34,947 bases of DNA from a virus. A model generated the notes under the pieces. The model saw only the letters and a program-made list of their open reading frames with translations. It was not told the origin of the DNA and did not search any database. Shown piece by piece: positions 1 to 9,287 of the stretch. The translations under genes were made by a program, and so were the position numbers. The DNA lies in UHGV virus genome UHGV-0108399. One strand, written 5' to 3'. Within the stretch, counting starts at the first letter, position 1, and each line of letters opens with the position of its first letter.

Positions 1-1161
1 TTACCTCGTATTTAAGTAAACTACGTTCTCCTCTTGTGCCGTATTTGTGCCATTGCGACTTATAATCGCATCGATTTTGCTCGCGTGCTCGGTGAGATGC
101 CCAGCTGAAAGGTGGGCGTATCTTTGAACCATTTCGAGAGTTTCCCATCCTCCCATCTCTTTAAGTGCAAGAAGAGAGACACCGGACTGAACCAGCCAGC
201 TTGCCCAGGTATGCCTCAGGTCATGGAAGCGGAAGTTGCTAATGCCTGCCCGCTTTAACGCTCCCTTCCATGCCTTGTTGCTGTCGGTTCTCATCTTCCT
301 TACCGCTGCTGTTTTTGTTCCGTCGCTTCGGTAGGCAGGTTTGGTGTGGACAAATACCCATCTCTTATGGAGCCCCTGCTGTTTTCTTAATATCTGGCAT
401 GCGGTTTCGTTAAGAGGAACTCCGATCGCATTGCCAGCTTTTGTTTCATCAGGGTGCATCCATGCCATTTTCTTATCCAGATCGACCTGTGACCACTCAA
501 GGTCTGTAACGTTGGAACGGCGAAGGCCTGTCGTGATTGCAAACATGACCACAGGGAAGAAATGAGGAGCAATTTCTGCAAACAGGCGCTTCGATTCCTC
601 CTCTGTAAGCCATCTGATGCGTCCATTCTTAACGCGTGGTGTTGATATTTTGGGTGCCCTGTCAAGCCATCCCCATTCAACAGCCATATTGAGAATGGCG
701 CGAAGTATTGCCAGATGCCTCGTCTTCGTTCCTTTGCTTGCCAGCTTTGGTTTATACTCCGGCACCGGATTGCCAAGTCGCAAACACCTGTCCCGGCTCA
801 TCTCCCAGTTCAGGCGATGGCGGCGGTTTTCCATCCCGTCTACCGCCTCCATTATTTTTTCTGTTGTTATGTCAGAGAGAATGGCTTCTCTGAAGTGCAA
901 CATCCAGAACGATATAATGCTCTTGTCATCATCAATGGACTTCTTATCCGATTTCTCACGCAGCCACCGTATGCAGGCTTCCTTGAATAGCTTTTTCGGT
1001 GATTCCCCGAGATTTTTTACTCTCCACGCTTCTGCTTTCAGACGATCGTGAAGTTCTTGCGCTTGCCTTTTGTCCGATGTTTCAAGAGAGCGTCTAACTC
1101 TTGATCCATCTGGCGCGACGAAATCGCAGTGCCACGTGCCACCGCGTAGTTTGATTGACAT
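1..1161 (-). CDS. int: Tyrosine recombinase / phage integrase (P22 Int-like)
   Basis: 386 aa; C-terminal catalytic motifs (HDLRHTWASWLVQ ... MVQRYAH) typical of tyrosine integrases; N-terminus resembles P22 Int; stop codon at window position 1-3. Confidence 0.9.
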   Translation of the reverse strand: MSIKLRGGTWHCDFVAPDGSRVRRSLETSDKRQAQELHDRLKAEAWRVKNLGESPKKLFKEACIRWLREKSDKKSIDDDKSIISFWMLHFREAILSDITTEKIMEAVDGMENRRHRLNWEMSRDRCLRLGNPVPEYKPKLASKGTKTRHLAILRAILNMAVEWGWLDRAPKISTPRVKNGRIRWLTEEESKRLFAEIAPHFFPVVMFAITTGLRRSNVTDLEWSQVDLDKKMAWMHPDETKAGNAIGVPLNETACQILRKQQGLHKRWVFVHTKPAYRSDGTKTAAVRKMRTDSNKAWKGALKRAGISNFRFHDLRHTWASWLVQSGVSLLALKEMGGWETLEMVQRYAHLSAGHLTEHASKIDAIISRNGTNTAQEENVVYLNTR

Positions 1162-3602: not shown

Positions 3603-3842
3603 TCACTCTCCTTTGATGCCAGTGTTTAGAACCTGACAAGCCTCTTTGAGCACCCAGTCAACAGCGTCTTTCCATGCTCCGGTTTCGGCTGGCGGATTCT
3701 CACGTTTTACCTGCTCATAGAAGCGCACTGCTTGAACCAGTCCTTCCGGCACTACTGGCGATGGCTGTTTAGCTTCTAAATCAGCAATTCTGTCAACCAC
3801 GGCATCGACAAGCTCTCTGTTAGTCATTCTTTTTCCGCTCAC
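3603..3842 (-). CDS. Hypothetical protein (79 aa, GTG start)
   Basis: Track ORF; start overlaps the stop of the upstream gene (GTGA). Confidence 0.45.
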   Translation of the reverse strand: MSGKRMTNRELVDAVVDRIADLEAKQPSPVVPEGLVQAVRFYEQVKRENPPAETGAWKDAVDWVLKEACQVLNTGIKGE

Positions 3843-4342
3843 TGGTTGCCTCCTTTGCGAAGCTCTGCAGCGAAATATACAGCTGCGGAAACAATAGCTG
3901 CATGTCGGTATTCACCATCAGAAAATAAAGAATCTCCCTTAAGTGCATTGACGATACTCTGATGATTTTTTGCCAGCATCTCCACGCCCTGCGCCCGTAC
4001 TTCAGCCAGAAAAGCATCGGTGGCGGGGGTGTCTGATTGCAGAGACTTTGCGCGATAGTCATTCCACCCTCTTGCATACATGTGATTAACTTGCACTCCA
4101 TCTTTTACGCAATATGCCTGCCCTCCACGGTTGATAACCTTGATTTCGTCCATAGCGCCAGACTTCAGCCCCGCATTCTCCGCTGCCAGCGCCGCGCACT
4201 TGGCCTGCGCTTCAGCAAATTTACGCACCAGATATTCAGCGTTTGTTTCGTTAACCTTTAAATCACTTGGGATGCATTTACCTTTCAGGAATCCATCCAT
4301 CTCAATTAGTGACATTTGTTTCATTTCTTCCCACTCCGCCAC
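3839..4342 (-). CDS. Hypothetical protein, coiled-coil N-terminus (possibly Ead/Ea22-like)
   Basis: 167 aa in the early-left accessory region; family assignment is a guess from composition and position. Confidence 0.5.
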
Positions 4343-4485
4343 ATCGCATTCAGATATTTGTTTTGATTTACTGATGGAAAAGAATTTCTCTTAAGCAATT
4401 CCTCTCTCGATGGCATTGGCTTTACGCGTTGGCGAATAATCATTTCTGCCGGAAGAATGCCGGGATTGTATGCAAGTCCTCTCAT
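4321..4485 (-). CDS. Small hypothetical protein (55 aa, [34 protein letters not shown]...)
   Basis: Internal ATG of track ORF 4321..4635 with GAGGA RBS, located just after the stop of ORF 4496..4789; the upstream part of the track ORF overlaps that gene in another frame. Confidence 0.3.
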
Positions 4486-4495
4486 GGTAAATTCC

Positions 4496-4789
4496 TCAGT
4501 CATTACTGATAGCGCCATAGCGTGAGCGGTAATTACGCAGGCGCGGGTCAATTTCAGGGAAGTGGGTATATGTGGCTTTGCGGAATGGTCGGATTGATGT
4601 CTGGTAAATTCGCTCGCGTTCTTCTTTCTCTGCAAGCCATATACAATGGCGAAATTCCTTTTCCTCTTTCGTTTCCTGCGGTAGCGACATTATCCGGTTG
4701 TAGTTTTTCCTGAATTTATCCAGCACCTCCGATACGGAATTGCCGGAACAGCGGCGCGCGTCATCCGCACCATACAGAGGCGCTGGCAT
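4496..4789 (-). CDS. Hypothetical protein, 97 aa; possible Abc2-like anti-RecBCD protein
   Basis: Strong RBS AGGAGAAAATC-ATG; lies immediately downstream of the recombination module (ssb, SSAP), the position and size of P22 abc2. Assignment is by synteny and size only. Confidence 0.5.
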
Positions 4790-4802
4790 GATTTTCTCCT
4801 GA

Positions 4803-5309
4803 TTAAATTGCGTGAATAGCGTGACGAGGGAAGGGGAGAGTTACTGGTGCAAAGGGTATATCGTCGTCAAAATCCATCGGAGGTTCGTTGTGTTGTGCTG
4901 GTGATGATTGCTGCTGTGGCTTCTGTGATTGCCTGCTGGCTGCTTGTTGTTTGCTGTCGCCAATGCCGCCAAGCATTTGCATCACGCCATTAATTCCGAC
5001 ATGAACCTCGGTTGTGTAACGGTCTTGCCCTGACTGGTCTTTCCACTTTCTGGTTCTCAGCATTCCCTCGAAATAAATCTGATCACCTTTTTTCACATAC
5101 TGCCCCACGACCTCAGCCAGTTTCCCGGATACAGCAACACGATGCCATTCAGTCAATTCCTTTTGCTCGCCAGTATTTTTATCTCGCCATTGTTCTGACG
5201 TGGCTATTGTCAGGTTAGCGAACGCTGTTCCTGATGGTGAGTATCGAACTTCCGGGTCTTGTCCTACCCGACCAAGGATAATCACCTTATTTACGCCTCT
5301 GCTTGCCAT
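4803..5309 (-). CDS. ssb: Single-stranded DNA-binding protein (SSB) with 15-aa extension after the DDDIPF tip
   Basis: OB-fold N-terminus ([36 protein letters not shown]), Q/S-rich linker, conserved [11 protein letters not shown] followed by [15 protein letters not shown] before the stop. Confidence 0.85.
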
Positions 5310-6017
5310 TTATGCCGCCTGTTTTAGTTCGTTAACTCTGATGTTCATTACCTGAACGCATTTAGCCTGCGCCTCCTCGTTGCCAGCCATTAATTGCCAG
5401 TCACGCTGATAACGCTCGATGAGTTTTTTCTTGTCAGTTTCTGTTGACGCATAATCGCTGAAGTCTTTCAGGATTTGTTCGCAGTCAACCGATGGAGATT
5501 TCTGGTTGGTATTTTCTGGTGATGGTTTGTTATCTGATGCTGGGATTGCCCATCCCGGCAGCGATGGAGGGAGCCAGCAAAATCCTGTTCCATCCTTCAG
5601 TTTTGCCCTGTGCCACCCCTGCTTTTTATCGAGAGATGTTTGTGCGAAACCTTCCTCAAGGTTATACAGATACCGACCGATTCCCCACTGAACGGCAGCA
5701 CGCTTCATTGCACCTGAACGACCACCTTTGACGGCTTCTACCTGCGTGTTTTCAGCAGCATCCCATTTGGTTACCCATTCGGAATCAATCTTGATTGATA
5801 TGCCGCATTCAACTCCGCCGTTGTTGGGAATATCGCGGTATTCATTGCGCCATCCTGCTTTGCCGCAAACATCGTCCAGGCGTTTCATGATTGCCCTGTT
5901 CGTGACATAAGCCAGCACCATAGCCCACACCTTTCCATCGCGTGTTTTACCGCTTTGCTGTATTCGCCATTCGATATCTTCAGGGCTGAATGGCTCATCG
6001 AATTTGTTCAAATCCAT
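5310..6017 (-). CDS. Rad52/22-family single-strand annealing recombinase (SSAP)
   Basis: 235 aa; conserved core (VECGISIKIDSEWVTKWDAAEN ... AMKRAAVQWGIGRYLYNL) resembles the Rad52/22 phage recombinase family; sits between kil/cIII and ssb where lambda has bet and P22 has erf. Confidence 0.65.
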   Translation of the reverse strand: MDLNKFDEPFSPEDIEWRIQQSGKTRDGKVWAMVLAYVTNRAIMKRLDDVCGKAGWRNEYRDIPNNGGVECGISIKIDSEWVTKWDAAENTQVEAVKGGRSGAMKRAAVQWGIGRYLYNLEEGFAQTSLDKKQGWHRAKLKDGTGFCWLPPSLPGWAIPASDNKPSPENTNQKSPSVDCEQILKDFSDYASTETDKKKLIERYQRDWQLMAGNEEAQAKCVQVMNIRVNELKQAA

Positions 6018-6025
6018 AATTCACC

Positions 6026-6214
6026 TCAGAATGGTAATTCGGATGGGGAGGAAAGAAATTCGCGCTCATTCATGCGCTCTCTTTGTGCTTGCCATAAACA
6101 AAGTTGTTTCTTTGATTTATCTCCCGCTTTACGCCAGTAACGAGCCTCAGCAATGTGATACTCTCTTTTTAATCGACTTAACTCTGGGGTTTTCGCCAGT
6201 TCTACCGTAATCAT
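6026..6214 (-). CDS. Small hypothetical protein (62 aa; track ORF has an alternative start at 6226)
   Basis: GGAGG RBS before internal ATG; ATGA overlap with the kil-like stop; its TGA stop lies in the RBS of the recombinase gene. Position matches P22 arf, but no similarity is claimed. Confidence 0.4.
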   Translation of the reverse strand: MITVELAKTPELSRLKREYHIAEARYWRKAGDKSKKQLCLWQAQRERMNEREFLSSPSELPF

Positions 6215-6324
6215 TTTGACCTCCATTTTCTGTAGGCTTCGATGGCCTCACGAAACATCTTTTCATCGCCAATAAAAGTGGCGATAGTGAATTTAGTCTG
6301 GATAGCCATAAGTGTTTTATCCAT
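6211..6324 (-). CDS. kil: Kil-like host cell-division inhibitor (37 aa)
   Basis: MDKTLMAIQTKFTIATFIGDEKMFREAIEAYRKW matches my recollection of the lambda Kil N-terminus; ATG overlaps the cIII stop (ATGGATAA). Confidence 0.6.
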   Translation of the reverse strand: MDKTLMAIQTKFTIATFIGDEKMFREAIEAYRKWRSK

Positions 6325-6457
6325 TTTTGGGAACTCCTGGCTGATTAAGTACGTCGATGAGTCGTTTCCATCCGTCACGTAATTTACGGGTGATTCGTTC
6401 AAGTAAAGATTCGGAAGGGCAGCCAGCAACAGGCCACCCTGCAATGGCATATTGCAT
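6317..6457 (-). CDS. cIII: cIII (FtsH/HflB protease inhibitor), 46 aa
   Basis: Hand-translated, not in the track (<60 aa, different frame from track ORF 6211..6450): MQYAIAGWPVAGCPSESLLERITRKLRDGWKRLIDVLNQPGVPKNG, near-identical to the lambda cIII core; RBS TAAGGAG. Confidence 0.8.
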   Translation of the reverse strand: MQYAIAGWPVAGCPSESLLERITRKLRDGWKRLIDVLNQPGVPKNG

Positions 6458-6529
6458 GGTGTGCTCCTTATTTATACATAACGAAAAACGCCTCGAGTGA
6501 AGCGTTATTGGTATGCGGTAACGCCGCGC

Positions 6530-8542: not shown

Positions 8543-9202
8543 TTAACTAAATGTCTCTTCAGGCCACTGGCTGGCGATAACTTTCCCTACTACGGAACAG
8601 CTATCATTGCATGGGATCATTGGATATTGCGGGTTTAGTGGTTGTAGGAACACCTGACCGCTATCCCTGATCAGTTTCTTGAAGGTAAACTCCTCACCAC
8701 CAAGTCTGGCTATGCAGAAATCACCTGGCTCAACAGCCTGCTCAGGGTCAACGAGAATTAACATCCCGTCAGGAAAACTTGGCTTGGATCCTGTTGGTGC
8801 GGTCATGGAATTACCTTCAACTTCAAGCCAAAACGCACAATCACTGGCTTTTTTGGTTGTGCTGACCCATCTCTCCGCATCACCTTTGGTAAAGGTTCTA
8901 AGCTCAGGCGAGAACATCCCGGCCTGAACATGAGAAAAAACAGGGTACTCATATTGTTTTTTTACGGGGGCAGATGAGTATTCGCCAACAGGTGAAAATG
9001 TACCGTCGTGGTTGAATGAGACGTTATCAATACCAAGGTATTTAAACACCACACCAATCTCGTCAAGAGATGGATGACGAGATCCGCGCAACCAGTGACC
9101 AATTCCACCCTGCGTCATACCAAGCTCTTCAGCTAACTTCTCTTGAGTTATGCCGAGCTCTTTCATTCTGGATCTAGCCAGTTCATACCATTTCATTTTC
9201 AT
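8543..9202 (-). CDS. cI: CI-type prophage repressor (HTH N-domain + LexA/S24-like C-domain); start at 9202 or 9196
   Basis: C-terminal domain near-identical to the lambda cI C-domain ([39 protein letters not shown] ... [11 protein letters not shown]); N-terminal HTH ([27 protein letters not shown]) is not lambda-like. The track ORF start at 9277 lies in the operator region; AAGGA RBS supports 9202/9196. Confidence 0.85.
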
Positions 9203-9211
9203 ATCCTTATT

Positions 9212-9287
9212 ATTACGCTCTGTACTAAAACCATCCATGCACAAGATGTATTTTTTGTTTGCATTCCAAGAGTACATATCGTATTAT
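9212..9287 (+). promoter_or_regulatory. OR operator region with pR promoter (-35 TTGCAT 9259..9264, -10 TATTAT 9282..9287)
   Basis: Candidate operator palindromes at 9212..9226 (ATTAC-N5-GTACT), 9238..9252 (weak) and 9271..9285 (AGTAC-N5-GTATT); the last sits in the pR spacer. Divergent pRM not precisely mapped. Confidence 0.5.

Follow-up and report, generated by a model that had tools for sequence, protein, structure and literature searches.

Two tandem open reading frames (ORFs) lie on the minus strand at positions 4321-4789 of the virus genome UHGV-0108399, directly downstream of genes for an annealase (SAP) and a single-stranded DNA-binding protein (SSB), and the locus raises the question of whether this phage carries a modulator of host RecBCD at the end of its recombination module and what the smaller second gene contributes. 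A preliminary description of the sequence had proposed, from size and position only, that the first ORF, of 97 aa, encodes Abc2, that a 55-aa ORF with its own ribosome binding site (RBS) follows, for which no function was offered, and that the phage pairs a Rad52-type annealase with Abc2 and not with lambda Gam. Here we analyzed both genes in the context of the window, which is the whole stretch of 34,947 nucleotides (positions 1-34947). Our best explanation, which we hold with high confidence from sequence comparison, is that the 97-aa gene is the orthologue of P22 abc2 and closes the Rec module of the early-left (pL) operon in a P22-like/lambdoid Escherichia phage, that its product would, by homology, have a RecBCD hijack role as in P22, and that the gene behind it, which encodes a DUF2737 protein, is most likely an independent accessory gene.

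Gene organization

The two tandem ORFs are seen in the ORF list and in a read of the minus strand (Table 1). The ATG of abc2 lies 13 nt past the ssb stop codon (TAA, 4805-4803) with no gene in between, and is preceded at a distance of 6 nt by an AGGAG motif, the strong RBS that had been described. The DUF2737 ATG follows 10 nt past the abc2 stop codon, and its GAGGA RBS, 7 nt 5' of the ATG, overlaps that stop. The ORF previously counted as 55 aa is thus a gene with its own RBS, whose 55 codons include the stop and encode 54 aa. Chance cannot account for either ORF, with full-length Pfam matches and dN/dS values against P22 of 0.14 for abc2 and 0.065 for the DUF2737 gene. Family matches were also sought for the opposite-strand and alternative ORFs of 4321-4789; none was found, and the opposite-strand ORFs, lacking any family match, were rejected as genes. 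A search of the same interval for promoter-like sites, terminator-like sites and Rfam RNAs returned none inside it, and an embedded RNA or terminator there was rejected, as no Rfam family or terminator-like site is present.

Table 1. Features assigned in the window by sequence comparison, in order of position
Feature	Position	Strand	Basis and remarks
Integrase gene	1-1161		
Ea22/EaE-like gene (161 aa)	3839..4324	minus	ATG overlaps the DUF2737 stop (ATGA); phrog_614/492/368, labelled unknown function
DUF2737 gene	4321..4485	minus	ATG 4485 to TGA 4321, 54 aa; equivalent to P22 orf56, HK620 hkaI and HK97 gene 38
abc2 (anti-RecBCD protein 2)	4496..4789	minus	ATG 4789 to TGA 4496, 97 aa; ORF list and direct minus-strand read
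SSB	4803..5309	minus	Directly upstream of abc2; Pfam SSB E 1.6e-36; TIGR00621 ssb; 100% identical to HK75_31
SAP (235 aa)	5310..6017	minus	Pfam Rad52_Rad22 over residues 4-136, E 5e-26; phrog_1097 Erf-like SSAP; 99% identical to HK75_32
HkaM-like ORF (66 aa)	6026..6226	minus	'Arf position' upstream of SAP; 97% identical to HK620 HkaM over 62 aa; phrog_1723
79-aa ORF	6211-6450	minus	Only residues 44-74 match lambda Kil
cIII	6296-6470	minus	96% identical to lambda cIII; premature stop gives 46 aa against 54, as noted for HK620 cIII
Lambda cIII thermoregulator RNA	6412-6470		Rfam RF01804, 88.5 bits
Terminator-like hairpin	6506-6487		Just upstream of cIII
Repressor gene	8543-9277		

Identity of the 97-aa protein

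Comparison of the 97-aa protein with Pfam aligned residues 1-97 with positions 1-97 of profile PF11043 (Anti-RecBCD_p2) at 207.4 bits (E 2.7e-62; curated cut-off 25 bits), and the protein likewise matches phrog_656, 'abc2 anti-RecBCD', at E 2.9e-54. Among NCBIfam models, one matches the SSB, and none matches Abc2, DUF2737, SAP or the neighbouring small genes. The pairwise alignment with P22 Abc2 (annotated in P22-pbi) that the preliminary description had suggested as a check returned 89 of 97 residues identical (92%) with no gaps in BLASTP, the two proteins being of the same size, as had been pointed out. Identity reaches 98% with HK75 gp30 (HK75_30) and 100% with the 'anti-RecBCD protein 2' of phage N7, and Abc2 is carried by 224 phage records, most of which annotate it as such.

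The solved Abc2 chain 8b1t_A (PDB 8B1T/8B1U) is matched at E 1.3e-56. The 15 Abc2 residues reported to bond with RecC (A3, R13, C14, S15, G16, Y30, I33, M34, L36, E39, K41, K44, E45, R47 and H48; Figure 4-source data 1, PMC9836394, eLife 2022) are all identical to those of P22 Abc2, and none of the eight substitutions that separate the two proteins (positions 11, 31, 32, 65, 76, 78, 86 and 97) falls on a listed contact. Pro68 is also kept, and is invariant among the 53 distinct Abc2 sequences that we collected. In the same 53 sequences a variable block spans approximately residues 24-65, while residues 1-23 and 66-97 are almost invariant. The C-terminal tail 66-97, which begins IRPFRKATY, is disordered in the cryo-EM structures (PMC9836394); its strong conservation in spite of this disorder points to a further function of the tail.

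In phage g341c a 91%-identical homologue is annotated 'Putative ABC transporter ATP-binding protein', with a similar label in phage 22, from which it might be concluded that the 97-aa protein is not a RecBCD modulator. We give this reading practically no credence: the label is an evident mix-up with the gene name 'abc' (anti-RecBC), the protein has no ABC-transporter match in Pfam and Anti-RecBCD_p2 as its sole family match, and the structure of the 92%-identical P22 protein was solved bound to RecC; the Pfam and PDB matches already refute the reading. The full-length family matches, the ungapped alignment, the match to the solved chain, the unchanged RecC contacts and Pro68 confirm that the gene is abc2, in agreement with what had been proposed from its size and position.

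The recombination module

On the minus strand the genes follow the order cIII, kil, HkaM-like ORF, SAP, SSB and abc2, then the DUF2737 gene and the Ea22/EaE-like gene. The preliminary description had placed the 97-aa gene exactly where P22 encodes abc2, next to the annealase and ssb genes. The position at the distal end of the pL-operon Rec module is indeed shared with P22, as is the Orf56/DUF2737 gene 10 nt further on, but the neighbour is not, since abc2 adjoins abc1 in P22 and the SSB gene in the window; the SAP-ssb-abc2 order is instead that of HK75 and HK620. The window further differs from P22 in lacking Abc1 and Arf, in its host (Escherichia, against Salmonella for P22) and in the N-terminal domain of its annealase, which is Erf in P22 and of Rad52_Rad22 type here. 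The SAP is chimeric: its N-terminal domain is of the Rad52/22 type and unrelated in sequence to that of P22 Erf, and its C-terminal ~72 aa are 63% identical to residues 134-205 of P22 Erf.

A close counterpart is the module of HK75, in which the gene order and spacing are the same and the SAP (gp32), SSB (gp31), Abc2 (gp30) and DUF2737 (gp29) proteins are 99%, 100%, 98% and 96% identical, respectively, to those of the window. The two phages differ upstream of SAP, where HK75 has gp33 and the window an HkaM homologue, in the kil and cIII genes, which are lambda-like in the window, and in the Ea22-like protein, which is only 47% identical. HK620 likewise carries Abc2 (hkaJ) and DUF2737 (hkaI), with the order abc2-DUF2737-gp37-like in both phages and identities of 100% for HkaI and 97% for HkaM; unlike in the window, with its Rad52-type SAP and canonical SSB, the annealase that goes with Abc2 there is of the Sak4 (RecA-like) kind and the SSB is non-canonical (PMC5928155).

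Lambda Gam resembles Abc2 in its target, host RecBCD, and in its general location in the Rec module of the pL operon, but the two act differently (PMC9836394): Gam mimics DNA, obstructing the DNA-binding site and shutting off every RecBCD activity, while with Abc2, which attaches to RecC, the helicase stays active. Lambda also encodes its own exonuclease, and the module of the window has none. In tblastn searches across the 35-kb window, no homologue of lambda Exo or Bet was found, and lambda Gam gave only a spurious match (E 0.13) inside the integrase gene. The pairing of a Rad52-type annealase with Abc2 in place of lambda Gam, as previously suggested, therefore stands. Among P22 and HK75 proteins searched for in the same way, Arf gave no match, Abc1 only a 19-aa match (E 0.03) close to the window's far end, and HK75 gp33 was not found. 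The HK75 functional type of lambdoid Rec module has been defined as anti-RecBCD+, SSB+, nuclease- and SAP+, and accounts for 27 of 325 lambdoid phages (Table 1 of PMC12315714, Genome Research 2025). With Abc2, SSB and a Rad52-type SAP present and no lambda Exo homologue, the module of the window is, by gene content, of the HK75 type.

The slot upstream of SAP, occupied by Arf in P22, deserves separate mention. Its HkaM-like ORF, which likely starts at an internal ATG to give 62 aa, has no homology to P22 Arf or HK75 gp33; PHROG 1723, which it matches, carries the label 'recombinase'. HK75 gp33, and not Abc2, has been reported to trigger the P2 OLD abortive system (2026 preprint), and small genes that bear on defence sensing seem to be exchanged for one another in this slot. 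Further upstream, the alignment with lambda Kil begins at the internal ATG at 6324 (88% identity), so that the real kil is probably the short frame starting there, which overlaps cIII at its 3' end, as happens in lambda.

The window as a whole is a mosaic P22-like/lambdoid genome, in which the integrase and repressor genes (Table 1) are followed by replication, lysis, head and ejection genes, and no phage record spans more than approximately half of its first 25 kb. The Chi site (GCTGGTGG) occurs on neither strand of the window, against ~1 occurrence expected, which fits the anti-RecBCD class and carries no statistical weight.

Proposed mode of action

P22 Abc2 binds RecC at its Chi-recognition domains without inhibiting the helicase, and co-purifies with the host protein PpiB by way of Pro68, which sits in the PpiB active site; the response to Chi and RecBCD-dependent recombination are abolished, while nuclease activity remains (PMC9836394). 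In the proposed hijack model, RecBCD resects the phage DNA ends and loads the phage annealase (Erf) in place of RecA (PMC9836394). We transfer three properties from the P22 protein to the window's Abc2: RecC binding, a lost response to Chi and engagement by PpiB.

By homology, Abc2 of the window would attach to host RecBCD through the Chi-recognition ('inactivated helicase') domains of its RecC subunit, and would thereby stop the Chi response and RecA-dependent recombination while sparing the helicase and the 5'-exonuclease, unlike a Gam-type block. RecBCD would then resect the phage DNA ends, and the resulting single strands would pass to the phage Rad52-type SAP with its cognate SSB. The conserved Pro68 should be the residue that PpiB, a prolyl isomerase of the host, engages. 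The hijack model fits the absence of a phage exonuclease from the module. For HK620, oligonucleotide recombineering was no higher when abc2 was co-expressed with the annealase of that phage (PMC5928155), a result from which a benefit of Abc2 would be expected only for double-stranded DNA ends.

The DUF2737 gene

Residues 1-52 of the 54-aa protein align with positions 1-52 of the 53 in Pfam profile PF10930 at 107.7 bits (E 2.6e-31; curated cut-off 25 bits), and the protein matches phrog_1117, which is labelled as of unknown function. It is 100% identical to HK620 HkaI, 96% to HK75_29 (gp29) and 75% to P22 Orf56. Across 23 homologues 15 columns are invariant, and the core motif of the family, common to proteins of Jerseyvirus, phiEap-2 and ENT47670, is present. 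Synonymous sites are saturated relative to P22, and, judging from the low dN/dS noted above, the gene is translated and under purifying selection. Divergence at synonymous sites from P22 differs about ninefold between the two neighbours (dS ~2.9 for the DUF2737 gene against 0.32 for abc2), which means that the two have had different histories.

The protein is very short, and the mechanical ORF list gives in its place a TTG-initiated ORF of 104 aa (4321-4635) that overlaps abc2; one could thus take the 54-aa ORF for a chance frame between abc2 and the Ea22-like gene, or the 104-aa version for the real product. An AlphaFold2 model built on the 23-sequence alignment showed three short helices with low confidence (pLDDT 64.7, pTM 0.22), and the annotators of HK620 predicted a terminator, tL3, inside hkaI, both of which could be taken in the same direction. 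The alignment is shallow, the homologue search having returned only 'DUF2737 family protein' entries from Escherichia, Salmonella and Shigella that are all at least 74% identical. Inside the gene of the window, no terminator-like site was found. The curated Pfam match spans the whole of the 54 aa and begins at residue 51 of the 104-aa version (residues 51-102), and all homologues start with MRGLAYNP, so that the 54-aa form is the gene and the 104-aa ORF was rejected. The purifying selection with saturated synonymous change, the invariant columns, the GAGGA RBS and the ATGA overlap with the next gene point the same way, and both readings against the 54-aa gene appear very improbable. A sequence search of the PDB with the DUF2737 protein yielded no relative up to E 1, and in the literature on DUF2737, hkaI and orf56 we found no functional study.

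The gene with which DUF2737 overlaps is the first large gene of the accessory 'ea' region. Its product is 47% identical to HK75_28 and mEpX1 gp30 (HK97 gp37-like) and has a motif in common with P22 EaE. The ORF list starts this gene at a GTG at 4342 (3839-4342); that start was rejected, as the homologues HK75 gp28 and mEpX1 gp30 and the ATGA overlap place the ATG at 4324. The family is highly mosaic, the downstream proteins being 38-98% identical among loci whose DUF2737 proteins are 98-100% identical.

Association of DUF2737 with abc2

Among the best 80 IMG/VR loci, a sample biased towards near-identical DUF2737 sequences, the DUF2737 gene lies directly 3' of abc2 with an identical 10-nt spacer in all 79 that could be assessed; the Abc2 proteins of these loci are 61-100% identical, and their flanking and upstream SAP/SSB genes vary. 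The pair also occurs in six of six loci from species-representative (GTDB) genomes, once with an insertion of ~300 nt; these loci (E. coli, Escherichia sp., Shimwellia and Intestinirhabdus) came from a scan with Abc2 as the single protein query, which finds no more than close relatives. With a concatenated query, both genes were found adjacent in 210 phage records, against the 224 with abc2 (~94%), and the two genes stay together whether the module is of the Erf, Rad52 or Sak4 type. Together with the reported instability of Abc2 expressed alone (PMC9836394), these data could be read as a functional cassette, in which the 54-aa protein would assist the RecBCD hijack as a cofactor, stabilizing Abc2 or contacting RecB/RecC or PpiB, or a shield against host systems that sense tampering with RecBCD. 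We consider such a cassette rather unlikely. DUF2737 follows recombination modules without abc2 in mEpX1 (RecT, MuGam-like, regulator, DUF2737) and in Cronobacter phage ENT47670 (RecT, exonuclease, DUF2737), and its core motif occurs without abc2 in ~480 records of virulent Guernseyvirinae (Jerseyvirus and Kagunavirus). Conversely, SPN9CC has abc2 without DUF2737, other genes are inserted between the two in ES18, in E. coli F11 and in one further locus (L089), and RecBCD-Abc2 complexes were reconstituted and solved without Orf56 (PMC9836394). The skew of the IMG/VR sample towards near-identical DUF2737 sequences also tempers the constancy of the spacer. In the virulent phages, as at the loci of Salmonella phage Ent2 and Enterobacter phage phiEap-2, the core motif lies in a group of small early genes that separates the lysis cassette from the terminase, and abc2 is absent from the vicinity.

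The occurrence of DUF2737 behind recombination modules without abc2, together with that of its core motif in virulent phages without abc2, argues that DUF2737 probably does not depend on Abc2 and is probably not a cofactor that Abc2 needs. In the temperate phages examined (the window, HK75, HK620, mEpX1, ENT47670 and P22), DUF2737 overlaps the start of the Ea22/EaE-like gene. The likeliest reading is that DUF2737 is a small, early and independent accessory protein, encoded by the first gene of the 'ea' region and translationally coupled to the Ea22/EaE-like gene. A bolder proposal, to which we assign a similarly small chance as to the cassette, is that the near-constant adjacency, which extends with the same 10-nt spacer over four Abc2 sequence classes and three annealase families, is itself functional and that DUF2737 is a second modulator of host DNA-end processing or a counter to sensors of RecBCD tampering; if that were true, the relatives of DUF2737 found in RecT/MuGam phages and virulent Guernseyvirinae would serve the same purpose there.

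Prevalence and implications

Matches to a 701-bp stretch (4200-4900) were found in 1400 of 5426 complete E. coli genomes, and in 590 of these the match covers 80% or more of the stretch; RefSeq names the products in E. coli genomes 'phage anti-RecBCD protein' and 'DUF2737 family protein'. What is seen at this locus had been described before, from the gene family and its solved structure to the type of module and the near-identical copies in named phages and in many E. coli genomes. DUF2737 is a very widespread 54-aa phage protein, present in ~700 phage records and usually following abc2. In practice, SAP, SSB and Abc2 together could be used as a cassette for recombineering in Escherichia hosts that are recBCD+. 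The main value of the analysis lies in a correct annotation, that of a standard HK75-type module in which Abc2 would repurpose host RecBCD for the resection of phage DNA ends.
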